From an uncultured virus (IMG/VR IMGVR_UViG_3300025838_000029) (lineage: Duplodnaviria; Heunggongvirae; Uroviricota; Caudoviricetes), in the IMG/VR virus record IMGVR_UViG_3300025838_000029, positions 62,001-89,399 of that record: a stretch of 27,399 bases of DNA. The stretch is one strand, 5' to 3'. Positions within the stretch are counted from its first letter, which is position 1. The number at the start of each line of letters is the position of its first letter. Positions 1 to 25,279 of this stretch are shown one piece after another. The translations under genes were made by a program, and so were the position numbers. The notes under the pieces are model-generated. The model saw only the letters and a program-made list of their open reading frames with translations, was not told the DNA's origin and did no database searches.

Positions 1-3
1 ATA

Positions 4-417: not shown

Positions 418-418
418 C

Positions 419-781
419 ATGAGCATGATCAATTTAATCCCCTGGCAGCATGGAGTTCTATGGACATTAACGTTGTTCTGCCTCTTTGTTCATTCACAGG
501 TTGTAATTGTTGGGGCGATTATTGCGTATAAGGCAATAGAGAATAAGGCCGCACGAGCAGCCAGAGATACAATTTATATATCTTGTCTCTCTTTGTTATT
601 TGTTGCATTGCAAGCAGACTGGATTATCGAGGGGTATACTGTTACAAAGATAAAGGCTATTTCCGATATCGGGTGGCGTCTTTTCGATTGTGGTGTCGGT
701 GTTGCTTTATTGAGGCATATGAATGTCAGACGATGCTTCGCATGTGCATACTGGGGGAAAGGACGCTCGAATGACTGTTAA
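419..781 (+). CDS. Small integral membrane protein (about 3 TM helices), function unknown
   Basis: AGGGGG upstream of the ATG. Hydrophobic runs VLWTLTLFCLFVHSQVVIVGAIIAY, IYISCLSLLFVAL and LFDCGVGVALL. Tightly packed with both neighbours. Confidence 0.7.
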   Translation: MSMINLIPWQHGVLWTLTLFCLFVHSQVVIVGAIIAYKAIENKAARAARDTIYISCLSLLFVALQADWIIEGYTVTKIKAISDIGWRLFDCGVGVALLRHMNVRRCFACAYWGKGRSNDC

Positions 782-1478: not shown

Positions 1479-1491
1479 ATGGTATTGTGAA

Positions 1492-3066: not shown

Positions 3067-3299
3067 TTGATCCTAGAGGAATGACGTTTCAATCATGGGC
3101 TTGTCAGACAGTTCCTAGGTTTATGCAATATGGTTTCATCCCCACTCCACAAGGGGAAAAAAACTGGAAGCAATGGGCGAGTTACATTGTTGGGTTGTCT
3201 CAACTTTCTGCGATAAATCCTCCTCGACCAGAAAGTTATAAAGAGTGGAGAGATTGGGCTGTGAGATTTAACGGGTCAGTCGTAGCTCTTGGACTTTAA
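3063..3299 (+). CDS. Small Trp-rich phage virion-module protein
   Basis: GTGA overlap with the previous stop. Pattern IDPRGM...W...WKQWA...P.P..Y.EWRDWA..F is recalled from small genes following gp10-like genes in environmental podophages. Confidence 0.7.
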   Translation: MIDPRGMTFQSWACQTVPRFMQYGFIPTPQGEKNWKQWASYIVGLSQLSAINPPRPESYKEWRDWAVRFNGSVVALGL

Positions 3300-8385: not shown

Positions 8386-9513
8386 ATGGTTGGGATGTTA
8401 AACGCAATTGCTGGCAGATATCATTATGATGAAGGCGGCTCTACTGGAGATGACGACCAGCAGAGAGGTCCACTCTCCACTTATGACCCGTCTGTTCTTG
8501 GCAATATGCAGAATGCAGTCCTAGGGGGAACACCTGAATCTGCCTTGCAGAAATATAAGGATGCCCAATCAGCACAGGAAGCAGCGGCCCAAGCAAAGAA
8601 GGATCGTATCCAACAGGCAATGGATACACTGAGTGCAAATCGCTCCAATCTCCCGATGATGGCTTTTGGCGCAGGGATGATGAAGCCAACCCACACTGGC
8701 ACGTTTGGCGAAACACTTAGTAATGCAATGAGCGATACAATCCCCGCCATTGATAAGCAGCGTCAATATGAGGCGCAGCTTCAGCAGATGGGGGTTTCAG
8801 CGGCTGACGTTGATCTGGCCCAGAAGACTAAAGCGGCCCAAGATTGGACAGACCGGATGAAGCTTGGGTTGACTACGGCAGAAACAAACCAGAGATTGCA
8901 GCAAAGTGATCAGCAACATCAGGATTCGCTTAATCTTCAGAGGCAGCAGCTTCAAGGACAAAAAGGATATTATGATTATTTGAAGCAAGAAGACCCTGAC
9001 GAAGTTTCCTCATGGGTGCCATTGTATGAAAAACCGGGCGTTCAAAAGATGGACCCTGTAAGTGGCTTGCCGTTATATCAAGGCATGAGCAAAACAGAGA
9101 AGCCCGTCGGTCAGCCTCGGATTGTTAGAAGTGATGATTTGGATAGCAGCAATACAAGTTCCCGTGCAGATCCGATTATTTCGCAGTATAATTCGGCTCA
9201 GAAGGCGCTTGATGCTGCTATTAGCAAAAGGTACGTTATATTAGGATCAAATCCTAAAGCCGATACGAAAATGTTAGATGAGCAAATCGCTCGTCAAAGA
9301 GAGCTTGTTGAACAATTGAGAGTTGCGGCTACGACAAGGTTGGGAGGCTCAACCACAACGCAGCCTGTATCGCCGGATCCCTTAGCGGCAGGATTAGGGG
9401 GAAACGGAAGTGTTCCTTCTAAGAAGCCAAACATTGATCCTGGCATATATTCTCCTTCTCAAGAAGCAGCTAGGTCTGGAGCATTTCCCGCCCCACAGCC
9501 AGGAATTGATTGA
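8386..9513 (+). CDS. Putative ejection protein (Q/A-rich helical)
   Basis: Likely start is ATG 8386 after GAGGGACGGA. YDEGG motif, FGAGMMKPTHTGTFGETLSNA motif, coiled-coil segments. The stop overlaps the start of the giant gene. Confidence 0.75.
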   Translation: MVGMLNAIAGRYHYDEGGSTGDDDQQRGPLSTYDPSVLGNMQNAVLGGTPESALQKYKDAQSAQEAAAQAKKDRIQQAMDTLSANRSNLPMMAFGAGMMKPTHTGTFGETLSNAMSDTIPAIDKQRQYEAQLQQMGVSAADVDLAQKTKAAQDWTDRMKLGLTTAETNQRLQQSDQQHQDSLNLQRQQLQGQKGYYDYLKQEDPDEVSSWVPLYEKPGVQKMDPVSGLPLYQGMSKTEKPVGQPRIVRSDDLDSSNTSSRADPIISQYNSAQKALDAAISKRYVILGSNPKADTKMLDEQIARQRELVEQLRVAATTRLGGSTTTQPVSPDPLAAGLGGNGSVPSKKPNIDPGIYSPSQEAARSGAFPAPQPGID

Positions 9514-12500
9514 TGCCTGAAGATCGCGCAGATGCTCCCCTACCGGAATCAGTGGACATTTCGGAGGCTACTCCTGCACCTGTTATAAACTATGTTAATT
9601 ACACTCCCGCCCCGACTCAGGCGCCAATAAAATCATCATTGCCTCCTTTGACACCGCGTCCAACAGAAAAGCCAGCACAAGGTCTTCCGTTAGACGTTGT
9701 TAAGCAGAAAGTGGCAAAGTTAAAAGATGCCGGTTATTCGCAGGATGAGATTGCTGAATCTCTTATGAAGAATCCTTTTTTCGGCCCTCGTATATCTGAG
9801 GCGGCTGATAAAGGATGGGAATATCCAGAAATTTTTTCGAGATTTGGCCTCGATGGATATGATCCAACGGAAGGTGGTCCGTTAAAGACTCCATGGCGAT
9901 ATGTCAAAGCAGGCGTTGAATCTGCTGGGGAAATGATTGGAAACACTCTCCAGGGCGGAGCTATCGCTTCAGACCGAAGATCTTTATATGCTCCATATTA
10001 TGAGGACTACACCTCGTTTAAGAGCAAGTCTCCTGAAGAGCAGCAGCAGATTCTTAGTAAGATCGCTAATAGTGATATGGACTTGGAGGCCAGACAGAAT
10101 CTTACAAAAGAGTTCCGCAGGCTTCAAGAGGGGGCAAATCCTAGACAATTTGACATGCTGGCAAATCAGCCAGTTGAACAATTGCCTGGATACAAAGTTG
10201 GACAATGGTTCAAAGACACCACACAGGGACTGCTTAATCCTGAAGAGGAAAAGCTAACTGGCGTTAGGATTGCTAAAGCTGCTGCCCCTATCGTTCCTGC
10301 TATGGCTGCAACAGCACTTGCCGGTCCTGCTGGCCCAATGGCTCTGTTTGGCGGGTCTTCTTATCAAGAGGGTTATGAGAAGGCAAAAAAGGTTGGCGCC
10401 TCAGAAGAAGCTGCCCGTGACGCTGCTATGAAAGAAGCCGGTATTGGTGCTGCCGCTGGTGTTCTGGATGTTGGAGCCATATTAGGCCCAATAGCAAAAT
10501 ACTCTCCTGAACTCCTTAATAGGGCGCAAGCAATCCTTTATAAAGGTATTCAAAGCGGTGTCATTGGAAGTTCAGTCGGAGAAGCTCAAAAGTGGCTGAA
10601 TGCTCAGATTGAACGCACAACTTATGATCCAAATGCACAATATAAATTTGATCCGACAGAAGCTGCGATTGGATTTGCAGGGATGGCAATTCCAGGTGCA
10701 GTTCATGGGGCATTCCATGAGCAAGCCCCAAAAGAAACCGCTCCGACAGGAACAGATATTCCTCATCCATCATTGATTGCCCATGCTTATTGGAGGATTG
10801 ATGAGCTTGAGTCTATCTACAATGGAACAGAGGGAAACCCTCCAAGGGATCTAACTCCTGCTGAAGCTGCCGAATACGCATTTCTTCAGAAGAACAAAAA
10901 TAAGCCCGAAGAGCTTTCTAAAGTGATTCGTGGGACTGAGCCTTCTGAGCAACCGGAGCCGACTCAAGCGCCAACAGTTACGCCAGCCCCAACTGTTTCT
11001 AAATCTAATAAGCCTCCGAAAGCGACAAAGGCTCCTGTGCAGGCTGAGATACAAGCTCAACCTGAAGCGCAAGTTCAACCGGAAACACAGGATAAGGTTC
11101 AAGAGGCTGCTAACGCCCTTGTCGAAGAGGCAAAGCAGAATCCTACGGTTACAACACCTGAAAAAGATAGTGATATCTCCGCTCAAATTAAGGAGATGAT
11201 CAACCCAAACAACCCGAGAGATTCTGTCTACATTGCTCCAGGGAATGAGCATGAAATCCCTGTCAGTGCTTTAGATCATCCAGGTGTTGAGCTTGCTGAA
11301 AATCCCGTTAGTAAGGCTTTGTTGCTAACGACCAATATGGACAAAGCCATAGATTTTCAGAAGAACAGAGATCTCACAGAAGAAGAGAAAGCCAATTTGC
11401 TGGGTCTTTCTCAACCCAAAACTGAGGCGTTAAAAGATCCTAATGCTGTCGTCGTTCAAGGGAAGAATGAGGATGGCGCTATTGTTCATCAGGAGCTTAC
11501 CTCACAGGATAACCTGCCTAACTCTGTAGAGAACACAGCGAATAGGACTCCTGAAACTGGTCAAGTTGAAGTCGCCAGCACAACAGGAGCGCAAGCCCAT
11601 AGAGTTGGTGGTGATGATCAAGCTGTTCCTGTGGCAAAAGGAAAGGTTCCGACTCCCGATCCTGAGATACAGATTGCTGAGATCCGTAAGCAGATTGAAT
11701 CATTTGAAGAACATCGGGATCAAGCTCTTGAAGTTGGGGATACTCCTACGGCTCAGAATTGGCATAACCGTATAAGGGAGGCTAATGAACAAATAGCCGA
11801 GCTTCAAAGAGGTCAACCGTTAGAAAAAGAGCCAGCAGTTCAAGAGAGTGAACCCGCTTCTCCGCAGGCTCCGTCAACCGATATTCCTTGGGAAAATCAT
11901 TATCAACGAGCAGTTGATGTCGTTGGGAGCGAGAGTTTCCCGCTTAAAAGCAAACCACTTGCAGATAAGCTTGGGGTTGATGAGGCTATGGCAACAAGGC
12001 TTTTACAAGCCATGGCGTCCAGGGGAGCTATTAGGCAAACAAAGAATGGTGGGTTTTCACGAAATCCAGATAGAGGCCCGTTAGACTTTCTTACATTCTT
12101 GGCAGCAAAGGGAGGTCTTCGGGATGATGAAGGCCATCTTCTTGCTCAAAGTATGGACGCTCAGAGGATGGTTCCGAATTACGGACCTTTAATCCGTAAG
12201 AATGGAATGGGGATTGATCAGGCAGGGGAAGCTTTGTGGCAGGCCGGATATTTTGGCCCGACTGATTCTACGCCAAGGCCAACAGAGACAGAAGTATTAA
12301 ACAAGCTAAGTGAAGCCCTGAATGGGAGACTTCCTCTTGAAGAGCGGTATTCTGAATATGACCGAGATCGGGTGCAAAAGATTCAGGACACCAAGACCGC
12401 TAAAGATCGGGAGAAGCTTGAAAAAACAGCTAGGGCTGACATTGAGAAGCTTAATGAAGAAAAGACATATGGATTAACCCCAGAAGAAAAAGCTAGAGCG

Positions 12501-15500
12501 ATTGAGCTTTTGGTTGAGCATCCAGAGGATTTCTCTCCAGAGGAGGCTGTTGTTCACGTTCTCGATACGTCAATGATTGAGGATCTTCATGGGGCTATTG
12601 ACGTAGCAAGGGATGCACATGATGACGAGTTTTCCGATATACCGTTTGAGTGGCCAGCAGAGGTTGAACCTCCTCAACGAGGCGAAGAGGAGGGTAAAGG
12701 GACAGAAGTCTCTATCCCCACTTCAGAGGAGGAATCTGGCACGGTTGGCAAAGAACCTGGAGAAGGTGAACGCCAAGATCTCCGTGACAAAGAAATAGGT
12801 GATGTCATTGGTGCAGGGGAACGGACAGCCCCACCAATGGACAGAGAGCGTCAGCAGGCGGAAATAAGGGCGCGACAGGCAGGTAAGAAAAGAAGCGGAA
12901 AAGAACAAGAAGAACCGGGCGGGATGTTTGCCACGGAAGAAAAGGGGTTATTTTCCGAACCGAAGAAAACCGCTGATTATGGAACTCAGAATAAGGTCAT
13001 TACAGCAGACGCGGCGGAGAAAGCTAGAGAGCTTCTTCGCAAGAAATCAAATCAGATTAATGCTGGTATTGACCCTGAAACCATGTTGGCTGGTGTTACG
13101 CTTGCTGCCTATCACATAGAGGCAGGAACAAGAAAGTTCGTAGATTTTGCAAGGGCTATGGTTTCTGATGTCGGCGCATGGATTAAGCCGTACCTGAAGT
13201 CATGGTATAATGCGATCCGCGATTATCCGGGGTTGGAGGAAGCTGCCAAGGACATGACGCCGCATGAAGAAATGAATGCGGCCATGGATCAATTGGAAAG
13301 GGAAGGCTATGTATCAAGCGAATCCAGAGGTCTGGAACAAACTGGCGAGGGACCAAAAACTGAAAACGCCATGGGCAAAGAGGCTCTTCCCACTGAAGAG
13401 AGAGGAGCTTCACAAGGCGTTAGAGAAAGAAACGGAGAAGCTGAAGCAAGAGGGAATAACAAGCCCTCAAGTGAGGAGCAGCTTCCTTCAGATGGCGCCT
13501 CTTCTGTGGGAGAGAGAGGCAATAGCGAAAGAGACGCAGGAGAACCCGGCTTTGGGGCAGTGCCTGCCGAACGTGGAGGACGCCCAGGAGGCTACGATGT
13601 TAGCCAGCATGGACCGGCCATTGAGCATATCGAACCAGAAGAAGTTAATAAAACTGCTGGAGACTCCAAGACAGTAGCTCAGAGGTTTGCAGAGCAGAAG
13701 ATTGCAAACTCTCGTCCAGTTGTCTGGAACGATATTAATAACATCAGAGAGACATTACCCGCTCTATTCCCTGATCAACAAGATGATGTTCATAAGTCTG
13801 AAAAACGTCTGAGTGTTGCTCATGGGATTATGATTACCAACGGAACTGGCACCGGCAAGACATGGAGTGCTGGTGGTGTAATCGCTAGATTTGTCCGTCA
13901 GGGAAAAGAAGACATTCTTGTTGTTGCCCCCTCTCAGGACATCCTCACTGATTGGAAAGCTGCCCTTAAACATCTTGGTGTCGATGCCTCCGTTTTAGAA
14001 GGGACGCAGAAGTCTGGTAAGGGCGTAACACTTACTACCTATGCTAATCTTGGGGAAAATCGCCATATAGCGGATCGGAACTGGCATTTAGTTGTCGCAG
14101 ACGAAAGCGATAATCTTATGTCAGATCAAAAAGGGAATACCACAAAAGCTCTAAATAGCTTCAGGGCGATCACGAACCATCCCGACGCATTGTATATTAG
14201 AGCGGATATGGCTTTGAGGGATCTTAATGATCGTGTTGCAGATCTCTCAGAGCGTGTTCATAAAAATTATAACAACAAAGAACTGACCTCTCAGTGGATA
14301 AACGCCCAGAGAGAGCTTGAGCAAAAACGCAAAGAGTTGGTTGATGTATACAAAGATCAACCGCGATCAAAGGCTATATTCCTTTCGGCCACTCCATTTT
14401 CATATGACAAAACAACTGACTATGGAAATGGCTATCTGTTCGATTATCAAAAAGAAGGTAATAGAAGTGGGTATAACGTAGCTGAAGGTCGTAACCTTTT
14501 TATGGTTCAGAACTTTGGCTATCGGATGAGAAATGGGAAACTCACGGCTCCAGAAGCAAATGTTAATAGTGAGGTTCTTGAAAGAGATTTTCATGAACGC
14601 CTGAAGAAAGAAGGGGCTTTGATCGGGAGACGGTTGGAGGTTGATTCTGACTATGATCGTAAGTTCATATTAGTTAATGACGCTATTGGGAATAACATTG
14701 ACCGGCTTCTTGAGTTTTTGCGTGAATCTGATGACGGGAAATTCCGTCCGATCTATTCATTCGTTAATGATAGATTTGATTATCTTTCAAGGCAGAGGTT
14801 GCTTGAGGCAATCAAGGCCAATCACGCAATCCCTATTATTCGGGAACACCTTGCTCTTGGCAGAAAGGTTGTTGTCTTCCATGACTTCAATGAAGGTGGT
14901 GGATTCCATCCTTTTGATACGAGTGAAATTCCAAATAACCCTGTCTTTGTTACCGTCAATGGAAAGTCACATGAGTTCAATTTAAAAGACCTCGCAAACG
15001 AATTTCACGACAGGAACCCTGACGCAATAAAAATGGACTTCTCATCTATGAAAAGTCCGATTGAAACGATGACCAAGGCTTTTCCAGAAGCTCTTGTCTA
15101 CAATGGAACGGTAAGTTCCAAGAACAGGGCCACCATCAAGCAACTCTTTAATCAAGATGGTTCTGGCAGAGATGTCATTGTTATTCAATCGGCTGCTGGT
15201 AGAGCGGGAATAAGCCTGCACGACACAACGGGAGTCCATCAAAGGGTTTTAATTAATCTTGGTATGCCCACTCGGCCAACAACCTCAATTCAACAAGAGG
15301 GGCGCATTTATCGTACAGGGCAAAAGTCCGATGCAATGTTCCGGTATATGAATACTGGCACAGCATGGGAGCGGGAAGCATTTGCCAGTAGGATTGCTGA
15401 ACGGGCAAGCTCAGTTGAAAACCTTGGAATGGGGAACCAAGCACGTCAATTGAAGCAATCATTCATTGATGCCTTCAATGACACATCTGAGTACCCTCCT

Positions 15501-18500
15501 TCTCCTGAAGAGGGAAAAGGTGGGAAATCATTAGACCGTCAGACATTCAGTGATATGTCTGATTTTGAAAGAGCTAAAACTTATTACTTTGCAGAGCAGA
15601 AGAAGACGGGTCGCAGAGATCAGCGTGAGGGTGTTGACTATTTTCCAACACCAGAACCGTTGGCACAGAAGATGGTTGAATGGGCAAATGTTAAGCCCGG
15701 AGAGAAAATCCTTGAACCATCTGCTGGTCATGGCGCGATATCTCGTTATTTCCCAGAATCTACAGAACGCACTATCGTTGAGCCGTCTAAGGATCTTGCA
15801 ACCAGAGCCAGCCTAATGACTCCTGGCGCTAGAGTGGTGAACGATAAGTTTGAGAATCTGCATATCTCAAATAAGTACGATGGGATTGTTATGAATCCAC
15901 CTTTTGGCATTGGTGGAAAAATGGCAATTGAACATCTGGCTAAAGCTGCTTCCCATGTTCGGGAAGGAGGGAGGATCGTTGCCCTTCTCCCAGAAGGACC
16001 GGCAACCGATAAACGTCTTGCTGCATTTAGAGATAGTGATGCGGCAAAAGACCTTCATCTAGTTGGAACGGTATCCTTGCCGACTCATATGTTTGATCGG
16101 GCAGGAACAAACGTTAAGTCTCATGTTCTTATATTTGAAAAGCATACCGTTCCAAAACAGGCAAATCAGTATGGCTCTGATGTCGGAGATAAGATCCGAT
16201 CTGTTGTACACCATGCAGATCTGTCTAACTCTCCAAGCATTAACGATACGTTCAATCGACTTGAGCATTTGTCGATGCCTGATCGTATTGAGCCGGTGAC
16301 TAAAGAGGTTGAGGCTCCAGAAGTTCCATCAAATGGAAAGGTTGTCGTTAGTGGGCTGGCCCTGAGTTCAATAACCAATAAAGACGGGTCTATCATGGTC
16401 AGCCCGACCAAGCGTCTTGGCGCCAATGATTATGCTCGGTTTATGCGGGTTGGTGAGAGATATGGGGGGGTCGAAAATGATTATTATAGTGGATTATCAT
16501 TTAAATCTCCCGATGAGCGCAGTGCGTTTTTTAATGCTTTAGAGCGTGGTGAAACAGGGAATGAGCCTTCCGCTGAAGCTCAAAGGCAAATTGATAATGG
16601 TGGATTAGGCGTTACCTTTGATCGTAAGCAAGGGTTGCGTGAAGATGGTGCTGTTTATGAGAAACTTCATACTCAGACCAGAAAAAAGCTTTTTTATGCA
16701 AAGCCTGATAACAGAGTATCCCCTGAGACTTATCAAAAGCTAAAACAGATTGCTGGAGAAAATGGCGGAGGATTCTGGGACCGCTATGAGAAAGCATTCA
16801 GGTTTAATGACGAAGATAGCCGTCAAGCATTTATGAATAAAGTTACAGGGTCACTCCCCCTGAAGAGTGGAGACTTGCGGGTTGGCAAGAAAATGGACGC
16901 ATTATATGTCCATAAGTCTGCCATCGATACGCTTCCAAAGGATGCTCAAAATCGTATTGAAAGAGCAAAGCCTCCGTTTGATTGGGATGTTGCCAAGATA
17001 AAAAGAGACAAAGATGGCGCTCTTGAGAATGTCTCTCTTATTGAGGCAAAAGATTTTGATGAAGCTGATGAGCCGAGTGTCGGAAGATCCTTTGTCATAG
17101 ATAGAGACGGAGAGACTCGTATCATCCCAGCTTCTGGGAAAATTTATCATGGTAAATGGCAAATGGTTAAGTCCGACTATCAGGGCTTTGATGTTGATGC
17201 CAGCAAGGAAAGAACACGGCTTCTTGACAGCGTAACGTCAACTGAGGACAAGAGACGGTACGGTCAAAAAGATTACATGGATAATGTTGTCGCGCCTAAG
17301 CTGTCTAACAATGCAAAATTAGCAGATCGGTTCTTAACTGATCGGGACAAAGTTCCTGAGACAGTAACAACTCTCGACTACAACCCAAAAGATGGGATTG
17401 TTCAAAAAATTAGCTCGGCTAACACGGTGCGTCGTCAAGCTGCACAAGTTTTCGGCAATGATAAGTTTTATCCTAGATCCGAAACGCCGTCTTTTAATCT
17501 TGATCTTGGTGGCGGAAAATTCCCTGAAGGAACAGAACGACTTGCTGAAAAGGGAATAACCAATCTCATCCATGATAAATATAATCAGAGTGAGCAGCAT
17601 AACAGGGATGTTGTTGAGAAGGTAAAGGCTGAGAAGGGAACCGGAATCGTTTCTGCCACTAATGTTCTAAATGTCATCAAGGAACCAATGGCAAGGCTTG
17701 ACCTTATTCGCCAAGCTGCAAAAGGTTTGAAGGATGATGGGGTCGCTTATTTCCAAATCCATGAAGGTGATAAGAGTGGAGAAGGGAAAGAGACAAGTGA
17801 TGGGTGGCAAGCCAATAAGCTGACATCAACCTATCTTCCTATGGTCAGGCAGTATTTTGGCAAGGTTAAGCAGGTTGGCAGGCCAGATGCTCCTAAAGGC
17901 AATCTAATTATTGCCGCAGAGCCTAAGAGAATACCGGGACAAACTATTTGGGAAGGCACTGAGCCTTGGGATACCAAAGGCAATACCGTGCCTATGTTCT
18001 CGGGGGACGTGCGTAATGAGCATTACTTCCCTGAAGATGGTGAGGGCCTGATTGCTCATAATGAATCTTTAAGCCCAGGAGATGCTGAGTTAGTTCATAA
18101 CGATGCACGGGCATATGTTTTGGATCGAGGAAACGAAACCGGCCATGAGCATGGGATTGCTGTTCATTCTGATGGGCGAGTTGAACATTTTACGGAAGGA
18201 AAAGAGGATACTCTTTCTATAAAGAAAGTTGCTCCAGAGCTATATCGTGAGATGGAGCAAGCTGGTAACAACATTGACGTTCATCATAATCACCCAGAGG
18301 GAACGAGCGCCCCACTATCTGAAAGTGATTTGCAGCTATCGACTCTTGATGGTGTCAATCGTGTAATTGCCCATGCTGGAGACGGTGTATTTTCCGTTGC
18401 AAAATGTTCGGACGCCTTAAACCAATTCGGCAATGCTGGAGATCGGCAAAAGCTTATCCGAAATTCATACAGAGATGCTCTTCGGGCCATACAAGAAAGG

Positions 18501-21278
18501 ATATTCACTGGTATCCGAGATGGAGAGATTTCTGAAGAGGGGATCCATAACATTGGTGATTATGAGCATATTATAAACATGGCCCTGGATCGGGTTGGGT
18601 TGATTGATTATGTTTCAAACCATCAGATTGAAGACACTCCTCTCAATCGGGAACTTGCTCAGAAGGCAATTCTTGCTGCATGGGATAGCGCAAATGAAAA
18701 TGGATTTAGAGTAAGGAGTAGCCAGGATGCTGTCAGGCTTGATGCTAAATTATTCCATGATGGAACCTTTGCCGAAGTTGCGAAAAATTTTGGTGAACCT
18801 TCAGGAACTCTCCAAGGAGGATCCAGAGGCGAAGGAAGAATTGGAGAAACTGCGAGAGACTATCCGCTGGAGAGAGAAAATAAATCTTCTTCCCAAGAAG
18901 GAGCAGCGGAATCGTTAGGTCTTAAATCTGGCGACCTAAGAACAGAAGATGAGAAACGTGGGGCTGTAACAATCTCTCATGTCATCGATAAGTGGAGCGC
19001 GGAAGGACCGGGGAAGGGTCCACTTCGGCGCCCTGTTCAAGTCCTTGAGGGAGCGGCTGATTATGTTAAGGAAACACTTCCTATAACGAGTCAAATTTGG
19101 AAATGGGCAAGTCGTCGCATTTTCCCTGGTTCAGCAGATGCTTTCGCTAAATCAGCAGCAAGAACAATCCGTCATATGTATGGGCAGTCCTATCTCTGGG
19201 AGATCCAGATGGGACATAAGCTCGATGAAATATCCAATCGCCTCGATGCTCTTCCTGTCGATGAATGGAACAAGATCGGGATTGCTTGGGCCAAAGGGGA
19301 CTATGAATCAATTCCGGAAGAATACCGCGAGGCGTTTAAACAAGCAGATGACTTTACAAAGAAAGCCACAGAGAGGCTTCAGTCTCTTGGGGTTCTGAAA
19401 GATGCAATGGGGCATTATGTAGGAAGAATTTGGAAGAAGCGTGGAGAGAATGCCCCGTCAACTGATGAGGAAGGAAAGAAGATATTCAATCAGTTGATGA
19501 GCAAGTTCCCCCTTCTTGGAAGGAAATCCTTCCTGAAGAAAAGATATTTTGATGAGTATGAGGATGCTATCGCGGCAGGAATGGAGCCTGTCTACAACCC
19601 TCTGAAGACACAGATGGTTAAGATTGCTGAGATGAACAGATATTATACAGGGACAACTCTTGTCCGTGCGGCGAAAGAAAGCGGTATAGCAAAGTTCTTT
19701 GCAAGAGGATCTCAGGTACCGGACGGTATGTTAGAGTTGGCTGGTCCTGAATTTCAACGCCCATTTATGAAGGTCATTGAGGGAGAAAAGACTACGTCTG
19801 TTCTTCCTGGCGCTTGGTATGCCCCAGAGGGATTTGCTCGGGTCTACAACAATCATGTTTCAAGAGGGTTCTCTGGAACACCAGAAGGTGAACCTGTGCA
19901 GATGCTTAGGAGCATTGGTGGGTTTATGAACCAAGCACAGTTGGGTTTGTCTATGTTCCACCCTGTCTTTACAACGTTTGACGCCATGAGTAGCACCATG
20001 GCTATTGCCGTTGATCAGGCTGTTCGTAAAGATTTTGGTCTTGCTGCTCAGACATTTGCAAAATCTATGAACCCATTCGGTGTTTATAAGGACGGGGATA
20101 ATTTCCTAAAGGCAGTCCTTGATCCTGACAAGGCAACTCCAGATCAGAAGTTACTGATTAATGCTCTTGGAGAGGGTGGCGGAAGAGTTTGGATGGAGAG
20201 AGTTCTGCGCCCGACTGATGAAGGGGCAATGGTTGCTAAAAGGATTTCGGATATACCCGCAACATTAGGAACGGCATGGAAGCTTGCGTCTCATAAGTAT
20301 GACGGAAGTGGGATGACTAATCAAATGAGGCGAGTGTTTAATGTCGCCGGTCGGGTTATGGAGACGATGTCGTCTCCGATTATGAACCATTTGGTTCCTC
20401 GTCAGAAGTTAGGTGTGTTCTCTCGTATGGCGGCTGATTGGCTTGCTGCAAATCCAAATGCAGGAAGTTTAGAGCGTATCACTAAAATGCAAGATATCTG
20501 GGAAAGCGTAGATAACCGTTTGGGTCAAATGGTTTATGACAACCTTTTCTGGGACAAGACTCTTAAAGAAGCAAGCTTCCTTGCTGTCCGGTCTGTTGGT
20601 TGGAACATGGGGTCGATCCGAGAGATTGGTGGAGGACTGACTGATTTCACAGGAGCCATAAAGGATAAGATTGCTGGTAGAGAGGCCGAGTGGACAAACA
20701 GAATGTCATATCTCATCGCTATGACAGCTAGTACGGCCATCACCGGGGCAATAATGAATCGTCTCTTTACGGGAGAAGGTCCAAAAGAATTAAAGGATTA
20801 TTTCTTCCCTCGTACTGGAGAAACGAGGTTGGTTAAACTTCCAGGTCGCAATCACCCTGTGATGGAAGTTCCTGAGAGGTTGTCGATCCCCTCTTACTTC
20901 AAAGACATTATGGCTTGGACAACCCAACCGGGTCAGACTGCGAAGAATAAGATTCATCCCTTATTTAGTGCAATGGCTCAAGCTTGGGATAACCATGATT
21001 ACTACGGTGATATCATCTGGAATAGAGATGACCCTGCTTATAAACAGGCATTGGATATGGCAAAGTTTGCTGGCTCAACATTGATTCCGTTCTCAATCAC
21101 CGGAACAATGAAAATGTGGAAAGAGCGTCCAGGTCCAGTTGCCACTATGGGTATGCTTGGGTTCCAGCCTGCACCTGGATATATAGCCGCCCCAGAAGCA
21201 AGACAAGCATGGGATGATTACATCCATGCTCAAGAGGTTAGAAAGAAAGCAGCGCGTGAGCTTAAAAATAGTAACTAG
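9513..21278 (+). CDS. Giant DarB-like polyvalent virion protein: SF2 (Strawberry-notch-like) helicase, N6-adenine DNA MTase, second MTase module, JAB/MPN domain, helical C-terminal region
   Basis: 11.8-kb ORF; AGGA SD before ATG 9513. Helicase motifs: GTGTGKT (13842), VADESD (D at 14100), LSATP, AGRAGISLHD, QQEGRIYRTGQ (15291). MTase motifs: DYFPTP, EPSAGHG (15714), NPPF (15894). Second MTase: NLDLGGGKF (17496), NVLNVI (17661). JAB: E...HNHP...SESD (18147-18329). Confidence 0.92.
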   Translation: MPEDRADAPLPESVDISEATPAPVINYVNYTPAPTQAPIKSSLPPLTPRPTEKPAQGLPLDVVKQKVAKLKDAGYSQDEIAESLMKNPFFGPRISEAADKGWEYPEIFSRFGLDGYDPTEGGPLKTPWRYVKAGVESAGEMIGNTLQGGAIASDRRSLYAPYYEDYTSFKSKSPEEQQQILSKIANSDMDLEARQNLTKEFRRLQEGANPRQFDMLANQPVEQLPGYKVGQWFKDTTQGLLNPEEEKLTGVRIAKAAAPIVPAMAATALAGPAGPMALFGGSSYQEGYEKAKKVGASEEAARDAAMKEAGIGAAAGVLDVGAILGPIAKYSPELLNRAQAILYKGIQSGVIGSSVGEAQKWLNAQIERTTYDPNAQYKFDPTEAAIGFAGMAIPGAVHGAFHEQAPKETAPTGTDIPHPSLIAHAYWRIDELESIYNGTEGNPPRDLTPAEAAEYAFLQKNKNKPEELSKVIRGTEPSEQPEPTQAPTVTPAPTVSKSNKPPKATKAPVQAEIQAQPEAQVQPETQDKVQEAANALVEEAKQNPTVTTPEKDSDISAQIKEMINPNNPRDSVYIAPGNEHEIPVSALDHPGVELAENPVSKALLLTTNMDKAIDFQKNRDLTEEEKANLLGLSQPKTEALKDPNAVVVQGKNEDGAIVHQELTSQDNLPNSVENTANRTPETGQVEVASTTGAQAHRVGGDDQAVPVAKGKVPTPDPEIQIAEIRKQIESFEEHRDQALEVGDTPTAQNWHNRIREANEQIAELQRGQPLEKEPAVQESEPASPQAPSTDIPWENHYQRAVDVVGSESFPLKSKPLADKLGVDEAMATRLLQAMASRGAIRQTKNGGFSRNPDRGPLDFLTFLAAKGGLRDDEGHLLAQSMDAQRMVPNYGPLIRKNGMGIDQAGEALWQAGYFGPTDSTPRPTETEVLNKLSEALNGRLPLEERYSEYDRDRVQKIQDTKTAKDREKLEKTARADIEKLNEEKTYGLTPEEKARAIELLVEHPEDFSPEEAVVHVLDTSMIEDLHGAIDVARDAHDDEFSDIPFEWPAEVEPPQRGEEEGKGTEVSIPTSEEESGTVGKEPGEGERQDLRDKEIGDVIGAGERTAPPMDRERQQAEIRARQAGKKRSGKEQEEPGGMFATEEKGLFSEPKKTADYGTQNKVITADAAEKARELLRKKSNQINAGIDPETMLAGVTLAAYHIEAGTRKFVDFARAMVSDVGAWIKPYLKSWYNAIRDYPGLEEAAKDMTPHEEMNAAMDQLEREGYVSSESRGLEQTGEGPKTENAMGKEALPTEERGASQGVRERNGEAEARGNNKPSSEEQLPSDGASSVGERGNSERDAGEPGFGAVPAERGGRPGGYDVSQHGPAIEHIEPEEVNKTAGDSKTVAQRFAEQKIANSRPVVWNDINNIRETLPALFPDQQDDVHKSEKRLSVAHGIMITNGTGTGKTWSAGGVIARFVRQGKEDILVVAPSQDILTDWKAALKHLGVDASVLEGTQKSGKGVTLTTYANLGENRHIADRNWHLVVADESDNLMSDQKGNTTKALNSFRAITNHPDALYIRADMALRDLNDRVADLSERVHKNYNNKELTSQWINAQRELEQKRKELVDVYKDQPRSKAIFLSATPFSYDKTTDYGNGYLFDYQKEGNRSGYNVAEGRNLFMVQNFGYRMRNGKLTAPEANVNSEVLERDFHERLKKEGALIGRRLEVDSDYDRKFILVNDAIGNNIDRLLEFLRESDDGKFRPIYSFVNDRFDYLSRQRLLEAIKANHAIPIIREHLALGRKVVVFHDFNEGGGFHPFDTSEIPNNPVFVTVNGKSHEFNLKDLANEFHDRNPDAIKMDFSSMKSPIETMTKAFPEALVYNGTVSSKNRATIKQLFNQDGSGRDVIVIQSAAGRAGISLHDTTGVHQRVLINLGMPTRPTTSIQQEGRIYRTGQKSDAMFRYMNTGTAWEREAFASRIAERASSVENLGMGNQARQLKQSFIDAFNDTSEYPPSPEEGKGGKSLDRQTFSDMSDFERAKTYYFAEQKKTGRRDQREGVDYFPTPEPLAQKMVEWANVKPGEKILEPSAGHGAISRYFPESTERTIVEPSKDLATRASLMTPGARVVNDKFENLHISNKYDGIVMNPPFGIGGKMAIEHLAKAASHVREGGRIVALLPEGPATDKRLAAFRDSDAAKDLHLVGTVSLPTHMFDRAGTNVKSHVLIFEKHTVPKQANQYGSDVGDKIRSVVHHADLSNSPSINDTFNRLEHLSMPDRIEPVTKEVEAPEVPSNGKVVVSGLALSSITNKDGSIMVSPTKRLGANDYARFMRVGERYGGVENDYYSGLSFKSPDERSAFFNALERGETGNEPSAEAQRQIDNGGLGVTFDRKQGLREDGAVYEKLHTQTRKKLFYAKPDNRVSPETYQKLKQIAGENGGGFWDRYEKAFRFNDEDSRQAFMNKVTGSLPLKSGDLRVGKKMDALYVHKSAIDTLPKDAQNRIERAKPPFDWDVAKIKRDKDGALENVSLIEAKDFDEADEPSVGRSFVIDRDGETRIIPASGKIYHGKWQMVKSDYQGFDVDASKERTRLLDSVTSTEDKRRYGQKDYMDNVVAPKLSNNAKLADRFLTDRDKVPETVTTLDYNPKDGIVQKISSANTVRRQAAQVFGNDKFYPRSETPSFNLDLGGGKFPEGTERLAEKGITNLIHDKYNQSEQHNRDVVEKVKAEKGTGIVSATNVLNVIKEPMARLDLIRQAAKGLKDDGVAYFQIHEGDKSGEGKETSDGWQANKLTSTYLPMVRQYFGKVKQVGRPDAPKGNLIIAAEPKRIPGQTIWEGTEPWDTKGNTVPMFSGDVRNEHYFPEDGEGLIAHNESLSPGDAELVHNDARAYVLDRGNETGHEHGIAVHSDGRVEHFTEGKEDTLSIKKVAPELYREMEQAGNNIDVHHNHPEGTSAPLSESDLQLSTLDGVNRVIAHAGDGVFSVAKCSDALNQFGNAGDRQKLIRNSYRDALRAIQERIFTGIRDGEISEEGIHNIGDYEHIINMALDRVGLIDYVSNHQIEDTPLNRELAQKAILAAWDSANENGFRVRSSQDAVRLDAKLFHDGTFAEVAKNFGEPSGTLQGGSRGEGRIGETARDYPLERENKSSSQEGAAESLGLKSGDLRTEDEKRGAVTISHVIDKWSAEGPGKGPLRRPVQVLEGAADYVKETLPITSQIWKWASRRIFPGSADAFAKSAARTIRHMYGQSYLWEIQMGHKLDEISNRLDALPVDEWNKIGIAWAKGDYESIPEEYREAFKQADDFTKKATERLQSLGVLKDAMGHYVGRIWKKRGENAPSTDEEGKKIFNQLMSKFPLLGRKSFLKKRYFDEYEDAIAAGMEPVYNPLKTQMVKIAEMNRYYTGTTLVRAAKESGIAKFFARGSQVPDGMLELAGPEFQRPFMKVIEGEKTTSVLPGAWYAPEGFARVYNNHVSRGFSGTPEGEPVQMLRSIGGFMNQAQLGLSMFHPVFTTFDAMSSTMAIAVDQAVRKDFGLAAQTFAKSMNPFGVYKDGDNFLKAVLDPDKATPDQKLLINALGEGGGRVWMERVLRPTDEGAMVAKRISDIPATLGTAWKLASHKYDGSGMTNQMRRVFNVAGRVMETMSSPIMNHLVPRQKLGVFSRMAADWLAANPNAGSLERITKMQDIWESVDNRLGQMVYDNLFWDKTLKEASFLAVRSVGWNMGSIREIGGGLTDFTGAIKDKIAGREAEWTNRMSYLIAMTASTAITGAIMNRLFTGEGPKELKDYFFPRTGETRLVKLPGRNHPVMEVPERLSIPSYFKDIMAWTTQPGQTAKNKIHPLFSAMAQAWDNHDYYGDIIWNRDDPAYKQALDMAKFAGSTLIPFSITGTMKMWKERPGPVATMGMLGFQPAPGYIAAPEARQAWDDYIHAQEVRKKAARELKNSN
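12619..12798 (+). CDS. Candidate overprinted small basic protein (+1 frame inside the giant gene)
   Basis: AAGGGA precedes tandem ATGs at 12619 and 12622. Amphipathic-looking LSGQQRLNLLNEAKRR...LSPLQRRNLARLAKNLEKVNAK. Occupies an acidic disordered linker. Could be a shadow ORF. Confidence 0.3.
   Translation: MMTSFPIYRLSGQQRLNLLNEAKRRVKGQKSLSPLQRRNLARLAKNLEKVNAKISVTKK
13309..13677 (+). CDS. Candidate overprinted helical protein, 122 aa (+1 frame inside the giant gene, just upstream of the helicase)
   Basis: Purine-rich GGAAAGGGAAGG before ATG 13309. Natural protein-like composition (MYQANPEVWNKLARDQKLKTPWAKRLFPL...APLLWEREAIAKE). The host frame over the same span is G/E/R-rich and low in complexity. 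Confidence 0.6.
   Translation: MYQANPEVWNKLARDQKLKTPWAKRLFPLKREELHKALEKETEKLKQEGITSPQVRSSFLQMAPLLWEREAIAKETQENPALGQCLPNVEDAQEATMLASMDRPLSISNQKKLIKLLETPRQ
18727..18918 (+). CDS. Candidate overprinted 63-aa helical-hairpin protein (+1 frame, directly after the JAB domain)
   Basis: TAAGGAG at 18712-18718, 8 nt before the ATG. Sequence EPLPKLRKILVNLQELSKEDPEAKEELEKLRETIRWREK. The host frame becomes a G/E/R/S linker here. Confidence 0.55.
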   Translation: MLSGLMLNYSMMEPLPKLRKILVNLQELSKEDPEAKEELEKLRETIRWREKINLLPKKEQRNR

Positions 21279-22293: not shown

Positions 22294-22500
22294 GGAATCT
22301 TATGTTTTAACACCTTCCCCGCCCTAAAGGACGGGGATTTCCGCAACCGGAGGCGCATGCTCGCGCCCGAGAATATTACAAGCAGCATTAACGTCACGGT
22401 CATGGATGGTTCCGCAATGCTCACAAGTCCATTCTCTTACTCCAAGGTCTGCGATACCTCTCGGCCTCCCATTGGGCAACGCGCCACAACAGGAGCAGAC
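22287..22500 (-). ncRNA. Predicted TnpB omegaRNA/reRNA (5' boundary approximate); guide from flank AACATAAGATTCCTTATGGA
   Basis: Inferred from established TnpB biology: the scaffold overlaps the tnpB 3' end and the right end, and the guide is the adjacent flank. Only the right-end hairpin is directly seen. Confidence 0.5.
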
Positions 22501-23567
22501 TTGGGAACTGTATGCTTCGTTGACAATGCTGAACTTCCGGCCAAGCGCAATCGCTTTATAAGCAAGCTGGTTTCTAAACATCGTCCATCCGGCATCGCTG
22601 ACGGATTTCGCCATTTTGGTTTTCATCAATCGGGATGGGCTGACGTTACCAACCACGATATGTCCGTATTGACGGACAATTCTTGTGCTTTCGACATGCA
22701 GGAAATGCCTGCGCTGTCTGGCAATCTTGGCCTGAATATCTCTGGCGCGACGTTTTTGTTTGCGCCGTTGATACAGAGCCAACTTTTCCTGAGAGGATCG
22801 GAAAAACTTTGGAGACTCGATCTTGGTTCCGTCGCTCATAGTGGCGAAAGTTTTCAAGCCAAGATCAATCCCAACGGCGAGGCCATCCTGTTTTTCCCCA
22901 TCTGGCAACTCGATCTGGATGTTGACAAACCAATGTCCTTGGCTATCGCAGGACAAGTTCCACGATTTAGGATTTCCGTTCTCTGGAATGGGGCGAGACA
23001 ACCAAAGCCGGTAGTCACGACCAAGAAAACGCAGAGTATCCCCGTCCAATTTAGCAGGACGTTTGAAATTGCTGAATGGAATCCAGTCGAGGTTGCGCTT
23101 GGCCGACCGGAAGCGCGGCGTCTTTGGAAAACATGCGCTCCGAGAATCGGCAAACTTGGCACAAACCGCATCAACCGTGTCGGAGTGAATACCAAGTTCT
23201 TTGGTCACACCTCGGCACAAATTGGCAAGATCGAACGCAGAAGGACGCTTGATAGTCATCCCGGCGCGGTATCTGGATGCGGCAACGCGGTCAGTTTCGC
23301 AACAATAATTCCAGACGAAATTAACCGCTCTAGCCTGCGTCCTAAGCGCACGACGAACGGCTTTATTTCCATCCTTGATTCGGTATTGGTGCGTCAATAT
23401 CATCGAAAAGGGCGTCTTTCTGGTAATGACAGAAGCTCGTCTAGGGACTGTGCGACGTTGCAAGCGTCCACAGTCCCGATCAATTTACCCCACTTTTGTC
23501 TCAACATCAACAAGGGAGCGGCTTTCCTCCCCGGCCTAAACGCCGGGGTTTCCAGCCGAAACATCGG
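22307..23567 (-). mobile_element. IS200/IS605-family element, tnpB only (IS1341-like, non-autonomous)
   Basis: Left-end hairpin CCCCGGC-CTAAAC-GCCGGGG (23529-23548) with guide GAAA. Right-end hairpin TCCCCGCCCT-AA-AGGACGGGGA (22316-22337) with guide AAAT and terminal TTAA. Target TCAT on the minus strand at 23568-23571. No tnpA and no target duplication. Confidence 0.88.
22324..23403 (-). CDS. tnpB: RNA-guided endonuclease TnpB (~359 aa)
   Basis: N-terminal MILTHQYRIK...VNFVWN. RuvC-I VGIDLGLKTFA. KSVSDAGW..FRNQLAYKA. Zn finger CSCC...CEHC. RuvC-III HDRDVNAACNI. Confidence 0.95.
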   Translation of the reverse strand: MILTHQYRIKDGNKAVRRALRTQARAVNFVWNYCCETDRVAASRYRAGMTIKRPSAFDLANLCRGVTKELGIHSDTVDAVCAKFADSRSACFPKTPRFRSAKRNLDWIPFSNFKRPAKLDGDTLRFLGRDYRLWLSRPIPENGNPKSWNLSCDSQGHWFVNIQIELPDGEKQDGLAVGIDLGLKTFATMSDGTKIESPKFFRSSQEKLALYQRRKQKRRARDIQAKIARQRRHFLHVESTRIVRQYGHIVVGNVSPSRLMKTKMAKSVSDAGWTMFRNQLAYKAIALGRKFSIVNEAYSSQVCSCCGALPNGRPRGIADLGVREWTCEHCGTIHDRDVNAACNILGREHAPPVAEIPVL

Positions 23568-23915
23568 ATGAGAAAATTATTTATCGTCCCTCTGCTTCTC
23601 TTAGCTGGGTGCAACAGTGACGGAACCCTGAAGCCGGGTGTCCTGACATTCGTCAACAACGTCGTCACTGCTTCTTGTCAGATTGATCAGGCAATTCCTG
23701 GTCTTGTGTCACAGGGGGCGCTTATTACAGCTTTGGTTGCTCCTGAATATGCCCCAGAGGTTGCTTTGGCAACGAAGGTTGATCAGTTGGCGCATCCTGC
23801 TGTTGTCGCTGCGTGTAATGCGGCAGCGGCGGCTCAAGCGAATGCTGCTGCAAATCATCCTGTGGCTGTAGCTGTAACCCCGATCTCAACAACGGTAACG
23901 GTTCCTGCGCGATGA
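23568..23915 (+). CDS. Lipoprotein in the lysis module (possible spanin-like or outer-membrane lysis factor)
   Basis: MRKLFIVPLLLLAGC is a signal peptide II with an LAGC lipobox. Ala/Val-rich body with two further Cys. ATGA coupling to the lipase gene. Confidence 0.8.
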   Translation: MRKLFIVPLLLLAGCNSDGTLKPGVLTFVNNVVTASCQIDQAIPGLVSQGALITALVAPEYAPEVALATKVDQLAHPAVVAACNAAAAAQANAAANHPVAVAVTPISTTVTVPAR

Positions 23916-24637
23916 CGACACCAGATTTTCAGAGGCTTCACCAGCTTGCTCAGTTGGCAAGCCTCGTCTATCAGACAGATGCAAATGTCCTGGCTAAGGG
24001 CGCCGAGAACTTAGGGTTTGAGTTTGTCGGTCTGGTTGGGAATAAAGAATGCCAAGCAATGGTTCTCACTGAGTTTGGTGGGCAACTTATTGTAATCCGG
24101 GGAACTCAAGTGGAAGAGAATTTCTCTCCATGGGAGTTATGGGATGACGCCAACCCAAATCATACTGAGGTTGGTGGTGGTGCAAAGGTTCGGTCAGGGG
24201 CGTTTGATCCTCTGAAGGATCTATGGAAAGACATCTGGGATCTTGTAGATCCGAGTGAACCGCTTACCATCACAGGACACTCTCTTGGTGGTCAGAGGGC
24301 GGCGATATCAGCCTTCCTCGTTCCTAGGGGGGTTAAGTTATCGGTTGTTGCATTTGCCCCTCCGAAGGGAGGAAATAAGGAGTTCTGGACAGCGGCTTAT
24401 TCTGGTCGGACTCTTCCTGTTATCGTTGGTAGAAGCAATGACTTTGCCCTTAGTTGGGCCTCTCTTGATACCGTGACCTGTCAACCATGCCCGGTTCTTC
24501 ACCTTAAAGAAGACGGTGGGTGGGAGATGTTATCCTCCTGGCCGTTCCTCACTGCTTCGATTCCGGATCACGATGTTGATAAGTATGTTTCGGATCTTGA
24601 GTCCCTCCTCCCTAAGAAGGAAGCTCCCAAAGAATGA
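23912..24637 (+). CDS. Class 3 lipase (alpha/beta hydrolase)
   Basis: Motifs IVIRGT, V.SG.F, nucleophile elbow ITGHSLGG and FAPPKGGN. Candidate catalytic Asp (RSND) and His (DHDVDKY). Confidence 0.9.
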   Translation: MTTPDFQRLHQLAQLASLVYQTDANVLAKGAENLGFEFVGLVGNKECQAMVLTEFGGQLIVIRGTQVEENFSPWELWDDANPNHTEVGGGAKVRSGAFDPLKDLWKDIWDLVDPSEPLTITGHSLGGQRAAISAFLVPRGVKLSVVAFAPPKGGNKEFWTAAYSGRTLPVIVGRSNDFALSWASLDTVTCQPCPVLHLKEDGGWEMLSSWPFLTASIPDHDVDKYVSDLESLLPKKEAPKE

Positions 24638-24795
24638 GTGATTGGCAGAAGCAATGGGAAGCCGCTGTCGTCGCAAGTTGGGTTGCGGCTCAGATGGGAA
24701 TTGCTCTCTGGACTAAGACTTTGATTGGCTCTCTTGAACAGGAGAAGCCAAAATTAAAACTCGTAACGATGAATGGGAGACGGATTGATGACTGA
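24634..24795 (+). CDS. Small hypothetical protein, 53 aa (below the ORF-track cutoff)
   Basis: ATGA overlap with the lipase stop. MSDWQKQWEAAVVASWVAAQMGIALWTKTLIGSLEQEKPKLKLVTMNGRRIDD. Fills the gap exactly and overlaps the next start. Confidence 0.65.
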   Translation: MSDWQKQWEAAVVASWVAAQMGIALWTKTLIGSLEQEKPKLKLVTMNGRRIDD

Positions 24796-25279
24796 CCCTG
24801 CTAATGAACACCTACAGAAGCAAACCCTGACTATTCAGGTCTATGCTCCTGACCACCCAGATCGTACCACGACGCCGATTTTCAATCATACCAGGGACAA
24901 ACTGATTGCTAATAACCCGAACGCAAAGTGCTGGATCGACAATGAGCATTGTGACAAAGACAACCCGCTTGAATTGCACCATAGCGTCGTCGAGTGGTGT
25001 GACAGTACGGCTGTTGATTGGGCCAAAGTGGCTGTCCTTGTCCCTGAGTTCGACTGGAAATCTTTTGACCCGTCAAAACCAGAAACATTTATCGATTCCG
25101 AATGGAACGCTAACCTCGTCTTATGCAAGAAGCATCATGTCGGGGCTGACCACGGCATCCATATGATGCCATATCCGTTGTGGCGTTTGCAGAAGCTGAA
25201 GCTGGCGTCGTTTGTCTATTCGCCCGACGAAGAAGCCTTGGCAAACGCTGCCATTGGCGCTTTAAGCGCAGGATCATAA
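24788..25279 (+). CDS. HNH-like His/Cys-rich protein
   Basis: GGGAGA SD before ATG 24788. Pattern C.I...C....LELHH...N..LCKKHH....HGIH. Confidence 0.7.
   Translation: MTDPANEHLQKQTLTIQVYAPDHPDRTTTPIFNHTRDKLIANNPNAKCWIDNEHCDKDNPLELHHSVVEWCDSTAVDWAKVAVLVPEFDWKSFDPSKPETFIDSEWNANLVLCKKHHVGADHGIHMMPYPLWRLQKLKLASFVYSPDEEALANAAIGALSAGS

Follow-up and report, generated by a model that had tools for sequence, protein, structure and literature searches.

Does the linker that precedes the helicase of a giant phage protein also encode a second protein? The question is raised by a stretch of 27,399 nucleotides (nt) from an uncultured virus of the Caudoviricetes (positions 62,001 to 89,399 of the 89.4-kb IMG/VR record IMGVR_UViG_3300025838_000029), hereafter the window, to which all coordinates refer. 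It carries a gene of 3,922 codons for a DarB-like polyvalent protein, and just before the helicase region of this host gene an open reading frame (ORF) lies in frame +1. Sequence comparison indicates that 13309..13677 is very probably a real, independently started and conserved nested gene within a dual-coding stretch. The features concerned are the following.

13309..13677, + strand: candidate nested gene, frame +1, predicted to encode a 122-amino-acid (aa) all-alpha protein; ATG 13309, TAG 13675-13677 (profile, selection and AlphaFold2 analyses).
13297..13306, + strand: Shine-Dalgarno-like (SD-like) purine run AAAGGGAAGG, read from the sequence and ending 2-5 nt 5' of ATG 13309.
13276..13308, + strand: non-conserved 5' extension of frame +1; the alternative ATG 13276, right after TGA 13273-13275, would give 133 aa.
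9510..21278, + strand: host gene, a polyvalent/DarB-like ORF of 3,922 codons, frame 0 (ORF list, translation).
12846..13274, + strand: frame-0 conserved domain of unknown family just 5' of the overlap, host residues 1113-1255 (homologue conservation).
13275..13676, + strand: frame-0 tether, host residues 1256-1389, rich in Gly, Glu and Arg, predicted disordered, open and poorly conserved (translation, AlphaFold2).
13770..16034, + strand: SNF2/superfamily 2 (SF2) helicase and N6-adenine methyltransferase dyad of the host protein, residues 1421-2175 (Pfam and PHROGs).

The +1 ORF and its length

The small ORF lies wholly within the host gene, on the same strand and in frame +1. Its open run extends over 13276..13674, up to TAG 13675-13677, with two in-frame ATGs, 13276 and 13309. 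Most tblastn matches, and the profile described below, begin at residue 12 of the longer translation (P0001), which corresponds to ATG 13309 and leaves 13276..13308 outside. A preliminary description, made before any database search, had reported a purine-rich SD sequence, ATG 13309 and a 122-aa ORF, all of which are present, and had set the composition of the product apart from the Leu/Arg/Ser-rich shadow ORFs elsewhere in the gene. These three residues make up 23% of the nested candidate, the lowest value among 15 alternative-frame runs of at least 60 codons (25-53% in the others). The frame-0 translation is rich in Gly, Glu and Arg over the interval, also as described, and the claim that the ORF stops where the helicase region starts agrees with the homology boundary, since the +1 stop in the window coincides with the start of homology to the helicase region.

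We compared the ORF with 2,000 shuffled versions of the giant gene in which synonymous codons were exchanged. Their longest +1 run was 163.7 codons on average (s.d. 31.4) and reached at least 133 codons in 85.2% of the shuffles, and the interval occupied by the candidate was itself open in 21.4%. The interval stays open at this rate because it is T-poor (14.9% T, compared with 24.2% gene-wide). We rejected ORF length as evidence for a gene, as shuffles attain it in about 85% of trials, and the case must therefore rest on other evidence. What lies beyond chance is the conservation of the +1 frame in relatives.

Conservation across related loci

An earlier search for related loci with a single protein returned only the record of the window itself, and a DNA-level search of GenBank phages with the region gave no match. 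With an alignment of 17 homologues (A1) we retrieved 79 distinct viral loci; together with two other copies from the window's own record these make 81 loci, 78 of them non-self. The +1 peptide matched 60 of the 78 non-self loci by tblastn at E <= 1e-3 (57 of 78 with different parameters), in stop-free matches of about 120 residues, and the frame-0 peptide from the same DNA matched one of the 78. As a control, 13 of 14 other alternative-frame runs of the giant gene matched no locus and one matched five; these controls have little power in the N- and C-terminal thirds of the giant gene, because those thirds are non-homologous across loci. The matching control is a 93-codon +1 run at 15535-15813, in the strongly conserved helicase core (5/78 loci), and is probably a shadow of very strong frame-0 conservation rather than a second nested gene.

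From 57 unique +1 peptides we derived a profile that gave one full-length, stop-free match in each of 75 of the 78 non-self loci (E 1e-48 to 4e-8) and recovered 16 of the 19 loci left out of its construction. Every match is on the + strand and just 5' of the helicase, in frame +1 relative to the helicase in 74 of the 75 loci. The exception, L067, has a split giant gene: the helicase has an ORF of its own (3007..), whose start is overlapped by an N-terminal ORF (3..3092). The nested gene (2539..2952) reads in +1 relative to this upstream ORF and is in frame with the helicase ORF. The three loci that lack a profile match are two stand-alone helicase-methylase genes (L061 and L065, 844-851 aa) and one giant gene (L060).

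Metagenome contigs queried with the relative P0127 gave 20 loci, 15 of them nested in long frame-0 ORFs (some of which may duplicate viral loci already counted) and five not (L088/L089, L091 and L096/L104). The relative P0256, used as a query, found nothing in viral or metagenome contigs, and tblastn of a plasmid collection gave no match to the nested protein. Among GenBank phages, eight matching records represent six cultured phages (Parlo, Skulduggery, Ruegeria 45A6, ZX1, Vibrio D274 and Vibrio 1.232.O), and the +1 layout was confirmed in three of these (Parlo, Skulduggery and Ruegeria 45A6). In Skulduggery the profile matches the nested ORF at E = 2e-43. The expectation that standard gene callers would miss the gene is borne out, as only the giant coding sequence is annotated in all eight records. 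The nested gene is thus widespread: it occurs in 75 of 78 viral loci, 15 of 20 metagenome loci, six cultured phages and 636 representative clusters of a protein database (see below).

Which frame is under selection

Selection was examined in 72 unique loci, comprising 71 non-self loci and the window's own copy. With a mean pairwise identity of 32% in the small protein, these loci are not artefactual copies of one sequence. Frame +1 and frame 0 are both stop-free over about 120 codons in 72/72 loci, and the third frame averages 10.3 stops. Mean pairwise identity is 31.6% in frame +1, 20.0% in frame 0 and 47.4% in the helicase N-terminus; of the 2,556 pairs, 98.1% are more alike in frame +1 than in frame 0, as are all 71 pairs that include the window. 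Computed for the three +1 codon positions, nucleotide entropy (1.351 / 1.158 / 1.451) follows a coding pattern. Read in frame 0, the same entropy (1.455 / 1.370 / 1.205) makes the third position the least variable, the inverse of a normal gene. The helicase in frame 0, taken as a control, gives 0.962 / 0.756 / 1.607.

The substitution counts point the same way. In 28 close pairs, 268, 194 and 513 substitutions fall at +1 positions 1, 2 and 3, and 345 amino-acid changes result in frame +1 against 704 in frame 0. Eight non-overlapping close pairs, all with the same direction, give 96, 77 and 222 substitutions at the three +1 positions, and 133 amino-acid changes in +1 vs 278 in frame 0. Between L005 and L080, 18 of 18 differences lie at +1 third positions; two +1 residues change as a result, compared with 16 in frame 0. 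Purifying selection on the embedded frame is indicated by all three measures, namely identity, entropy and the substitution counts. The preliminary description had proposed a tblastn search with the +1 peptide, and the matches it gave lie inside other DarB-like genes, where conservation is higher in +1 than in frame 0. Its view that +1 carries the selection, frame 0 being filler, finds support in identity and entropy as well as in the re-encoding and AlphaFold2 results below.

Conserved frame-0 residues in the linker call for caution, as they can be shadows of the other frame. We read the invariant E1276 of the host protein as such a shadow, because its codon overlaps a near-invariant Trp-Asn (TGG AAY) of the nested protein.

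Translation start and stop

The homologous start codon is ATG in 71 of the 72 loci and TTG in one, and lies exactly at the profile start in 59. An SD-like core, defined as at least 4 nt, occurs 3-12 nt 5' of the start in 56 of the 72 loci. The corresponding figures are 16.2% (1,086/6,720) for other +1 ATGs, which served as controls, and 23.6% for arbitrary positions within the region; the enrichment over control ATGs has a binomial p of ~1e-30. In 7 of the 72 loci the start ATG comes immediately after a +1 stop, which excludes entry by an upstream frameshift in those seven; in the window, TGA lies 11 codons upstream. At the other end, the +1 stop falls 0-48 nt from the start of helicase homology in most loci. 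Around the start we found no + strand promoter-like site, no + strand terminator-like site and no Rfam family. From these sequence features we conclude that the nested ORF has its own predicted translation start.

The host-frame tether and probable dual coding

In most homologues the upstream conserved domain and the helicase are separated by a spacer close to 130-140 residues. Across loci, the frame-0 tether that fills it is 17.6% Gly and 10.8% hydrophobic, and the nested protein is 32.3% hydrophobic. AlphaFold2, given the +1 alignment (A2, 72 rows), predicts eight helices with high confidence (predicted local distance difference test (pLDDT) 94.3, predicted template modelling score (pTM) 0.87). 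The frame-0 translations of the same 72 stretches (A3) give almost no secondary structure (pLDDT 48.7, pTM 0.13).

We also re-encoded each nested protein with the synonymous codon usage of its own giant gene. Re-encoding predicts 4.87 frame-0 stops per locus and a chance of an open frame with a median of 0.5% and a mean of 4.3%. The stretch appears truly dual-coding, because frame 0 is open in 72/72 loci despite about 4.9 expected stops; this openness argues that both frames are read. In the free-standing copies L086 and L096/L104 (described below), the corresponding frame is closed, being open over only 17-28 codons; in the high-GC copies L088/L089 and L091 it is open over 205-223 codons. The one giant ORF found without a nested gene (L060:2300-3100) also lacks the ~130-residue tether, a single case in which the upstream domain is followed by the N-terminal motif of the helicase within about 35 residues.

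We propose the following model. Ribosomes would initiate independently at the internal SD-like site and ATG 13309, as the conservation of both suggests, and would make a 122-residue globular protein of eight helices, terminating at TAG 13675, where the helicase domain of the host begins. Over the same bases the host frame would supply a disordered tether rich in Gly, Asp, Arg and Ser that links the upstream domain to the SNF2 helicase-methyltransferase dyad. The sequence of this tether would be free to drift yet bound to stay stop-free, and since it drifts but stays open, the stretch would be dual-coding with the small gene as the constrained frame. The small protein might be made together with the giant protein late in infection, a step that we put forward with low confidence.

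Alternative explanations

A programmed frameshift from the giant ORF would yield a truncated N-terminal isoform ending in the 122-residue domain. Such an entry would suit the finding that frame +1 is open for 0-188 codons upstream of the ATG across loci, and two database proteins, P0168 and P0242, resemble the expected fusion product, but both come from unverified assemblies. We consider this explanation very unlikely, given a start codon that is kept as ATG in all but one of the 72 loci and that sits at the exact profile start in 59, an SD-like core enriched about five-fold over control ATGs, and homology that never reaches upstream of the start Met; 148 of the best 150 database relatives likewise start with Met. 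No upstream shift site could feed the 7 of 72 loci with a +1 stop directly 5' of the ATG. The alternative frame was not found to be continuous with the host frame at an upstream shift site, no slippery-site search having been made.

Alternatively, frame 0 might be untranslated here, so that two genes flank the small one and the open frame 0 is a by-product. The separate helicase ORF of L067, the stand-alone helicase-methylase genes (L061 and L065) and the poorly conserved, predicted disordered frame-0 sequence would all fit. Against this stand a frame 0 that is stop-free in 72/72 loci where 4.87 stops per locus are predicted and the third frame averages 10.3, a matching frame that is closed in the free-standing L086 and L096/L104 (though open in the high-GC L088/L089 and L091), and the lack, in the window, of a frame-0 ATG near the +1 stop from which the helicase part could restart. 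We regard this arrangement as highly improbable. Finally, it is exceedingly improbable that a T-poor linker has merely been left open by chance and that no protein is encoded. A +1 run of 133 codons or more does arise in 85.2% of the shuffles, and the interval is open in 21.4%, but chance would not account for a conserved peptide, start codon and SD-like core, for the pattern of substitutions by codon position, for a confident predicted fold, or for free-standing homologues (L086, L096, L091 and L088/L089) together with 636 profile matches among database representatives.

Several points weigh against a nested gene or against a role for it in the host enzyme. The length of the ORF lies within chance under synonymous shuffling, no SD-like core of 4 nt or more is present at 16 of the 72 starts, and the pair counts and the joint probability of openness are not independent trials, because the loci are related. 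On the functional side, the predicted fold matches nothing that hints at function, and the enzyme does not universally need the nested gene, as L061, L065 and L060 are without it. No nested homologue was found in the darB region of phage P1 (best E = 1) or in the stretch of Bcep22 gp75 that was examined.

Free-standing relatives and which frame is older

A search of 1.84 billion proteins with the profile gave 636 matching representatives, of which 122 reach E <= 1e-30. Within the best 150 relatives, 113 are at most 145 aa long and 148 start with Met, most of them at profile position 1. Several of the small representatives and cluster members sit on short contigs (554 to 29,453 bp), so that many small database relatives may be nested copies picked up by a gene caller.

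Of the 28 representatives longer than 185 aa, 22 have the domain at the N-terminus, followed by C-terminal parts that vary. The C-terminal parts of 16 long representatives were scanned, and no Pfam family was found except DUF6794 in P0260, a protein with two copies of the domain. A C-terminal segment common to P0137 and P0141 looks helix-turn-helix-like by eye; P0137, the one of the two that was scanned, has no Pfam match there. In P0168 and P0242 the frame-0 upstream segment is fused in frame to the nested domain, and in P0184 the nested domain is joined to an upstream-type domain; the assemblies of all three are unverified. Longer fused forms were also sought with a word-indexed search; none came up, a negative of little weight in a search of this kind.

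Some relatives are clearly not nested. At L086:1461-9025 a Bacillota metagenome-assembled genome, reached with the P0223 query, encodes a free-standing 557-aa protein with the nested-family domain at its N-terminus, and this gene lies directly upstream of a complete type I restriction-modification (R-M) operon, hsdR-hsdS-hsdM. Among 401 genomes of the same phylum, its own included, this genome alone matches. At L091:4995-7621 a free-standing 165-aa member lies just upstream of a gene for a 679-aa TIR-TPR protein, a defence-type neighbour. L096 adjoins a GH26 gene, and L088 has no informative neighbour; two of the four distinct free-standing contexts are thus of defence type.

The novel frame of an overprinted pair often encodes a disordered product. 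In 63 of the 72 loci, the synonymous codon usage of frame +1 is closer than that of frame 0 to the usage in the remainder of the giant gene. In the part of Pavesi et al. 2013 (PMC3744397) that concerns codon usage, the frame with genome-like usage is taken as ancestral and the other as novel. Judged from codon usage and from the occurrence of the family outside the overlap, the nested gene probably came first, and a tether reading across it would later have fused two modules.

Nature and possible role of the nested protein

The nested protein of the window has no Pfam, PHROGs, NCBIfam or PADLOC family. Families that match any of the 72 members do so weakly and in at most one member each: five NCBIfam families (E 0.003-0.01), one PHROG (2.6e-4) and one Pfam family (1.4e-4). 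Fold searches gave best values of E 1.5 (Foldseek, PDB), E 2.0 (Foldseek, BFVD) and Z 4.4 (VIA-align, 48,161 chains). A sequence-profile search of the PDB gave no match (best E 0.5), and the ESM Atlas provided nothing usable for this protein. Members of the family are predicted to be soluble, mildly acidic (median isoelectric point (pI) 4.96; pI 9.07 in the window copy) and almost free of Cys (0.15 per protein). Glu68 is invariant, and P64, A71, I72, P87, E94 and L117 are near-invariant.

The position of the gene beside the helicase is fixed, and identity of the nested protein tracks identity of the helicase (Spearman 0.50). This constant position and the in-frame fusions P0168, P0242 and P0184 are indirect hints that the two products may act together. 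We tentatively suggest, while thinking it more apt to be wrong than right, that the nested protein is an adaptor, chaperone or regulator of the helicase-methylase module, acting with or on the giant protein. One version of this role, advanced in the preliminary description, is that of a chaperone or inhibitor that would hold the helicase-methylase inactive in the producing cell. More generally, the protein may be a protein-binding module of phage-host conflict systems.

A broader picture is conceivable, and we rate it as a serious possibility that nonetheless falls somewhat short of even. An undescribed family with an unmatched eight-helix fold would be embedded in a large share of DarB-like giant genes, and these giants would have been built by overprinting a tether across a pre-existing gene. 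The small protein would be a binding or adaptor module of conflict systems; it occurs also as an N-terminal domain followed by C-terminal parts that differ, and has a type I R-M operon in one case and a TIR-TPR gene in another as its neighbour.

Comparison with known systems

To our knowledge, strongly evidenced embedded genes are few in tailed phages, Rz1 being the textbook case. Lambda Rz/Rz1 is also the closest known architecture, in that a larger phage gene contains, in its +1 frame and on the same strand, the whole of a small gene. Rz1, as the embedded gene, starts independently. The two systems have unrelated proteins: Rz1 is a lipoprotein of the outer membrane and binds Rz, whereas the product here is predicted to be soluble and all-alpha with almost no Cys, and its host is a virion-type polyvalent protein of 3,922 residues. 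The embedded frame also looks older here, unlike in Rz/Rz1. The account of Rz/Rz1 in the relevant part of PMC5295617 describes silent domains of one as corresponding to sensitive domains of the other, and here, too, the embedded gene overlies a change-tolerant part of its host, an unconstrained tether.

With DarB of phage P1 and other polyvalent proteins, the host protein shares the SWI2/SNF2-type ATPase and adenine-methylase dyad that defines the group in the main text of PMC5512222; the P1 darB region differs in being without a nested homologue. The case resembles viral overprinting, as treated in the pertinent parts of PMC3744397 and of a review (PMC8227390), in that two proteins come from one DNA stretch. 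In viral overprinting, however, a new small ORF usually arises within an old gene, whereas here the small gene seems old and the tether new. A different use of an alternative frame is lambda G/GT, where a programmed frameshift gives a product from within a gene of the structural region. Here, by contrast, a conserved ATG and an SD-like core mark an independent start, and a stop lies directly 5' of it in 7/72 loci.

We found no description of a nested, embedded, overprinted or overlapping gene in the literature on DarB-like or polyvalent genes. The words 'overlapping' and 'frameshift' do not occur in the main text of Iyer et al. 2017 (PMC5512222), so the nested gene is undescribed there, and neither the Skulduggery genome announcement nor the abstract on Parlo mentions it. 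What is likely to be new is an embedded phage gene whose family and host gene are both new to this architecture, the host frame being the likely newcomer. The gene is invisible to annotation and yet would encode a confidently predicted fold without known relative. If the proposed reading is correct, a 'linker' in a giant effector protein can exist solely because a gene lies under it, and a route to gene fusion is suggested in which an intervening gene is read through in another frame. The small protein would also offer a tractable target within the poorly understood DarB-like anti-restriction machinery, for example in Skulduggery on P. fluorescens SBW25.

The host gene and its neighbours

The host protein combines a SWI2/SNF2-type helicase and an adenine methyltransferase in one large multidomain phage protein, and is thus a polyvalent protein in the sense given in the main text of Iyer et al. 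2017 (PMC5512222). Pfam matches above cut-off are ResIII, an SF2 helicase family (residues 1421-1556, E 7e-10), and Helicase_C_4, a Strawberry-notch-type C-terminal helicase domain (residues 1885-1995, E 7e-10). The adenine-methyltransferase region lies near residues 2040-2175, with weak Pfam matches near residues 2104-2171 that are below cut-offs and a strong PHROGs match (phrog_15406, 3e-27). In addition, phrog_10691 spans residues 1113-2275, and the 'DarB-like antirestriction' phrog_10089 matches the protein at 1.4e-40. The dyad motifs NGTGTGKT and NPPFG are invariant in alignment A1. The upstream domain (residues 1113-1255) is kept in 74 among the 120 homologues listed, at 31-59% identity, and its invariant columns in A1 run from N1161 to Y1233. 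The nearest protein homologues of the host are at most 49% identical over residues 1113-1560.

Further downstream, two long ORFs overlap on opposite strands, one of 404 aa on the + strand (22357..23571) and one of 379 aa on the - strand (22324..23463); the product of the former, the only one of the two scanned, has no Pfam or PHROGs family. The genes that follow the giant gene also include a phage lysozyme (21642..22076), a class-3 lipase-like gene (23912..24637) and an HNH endonuclease-like gene (24773..25279).

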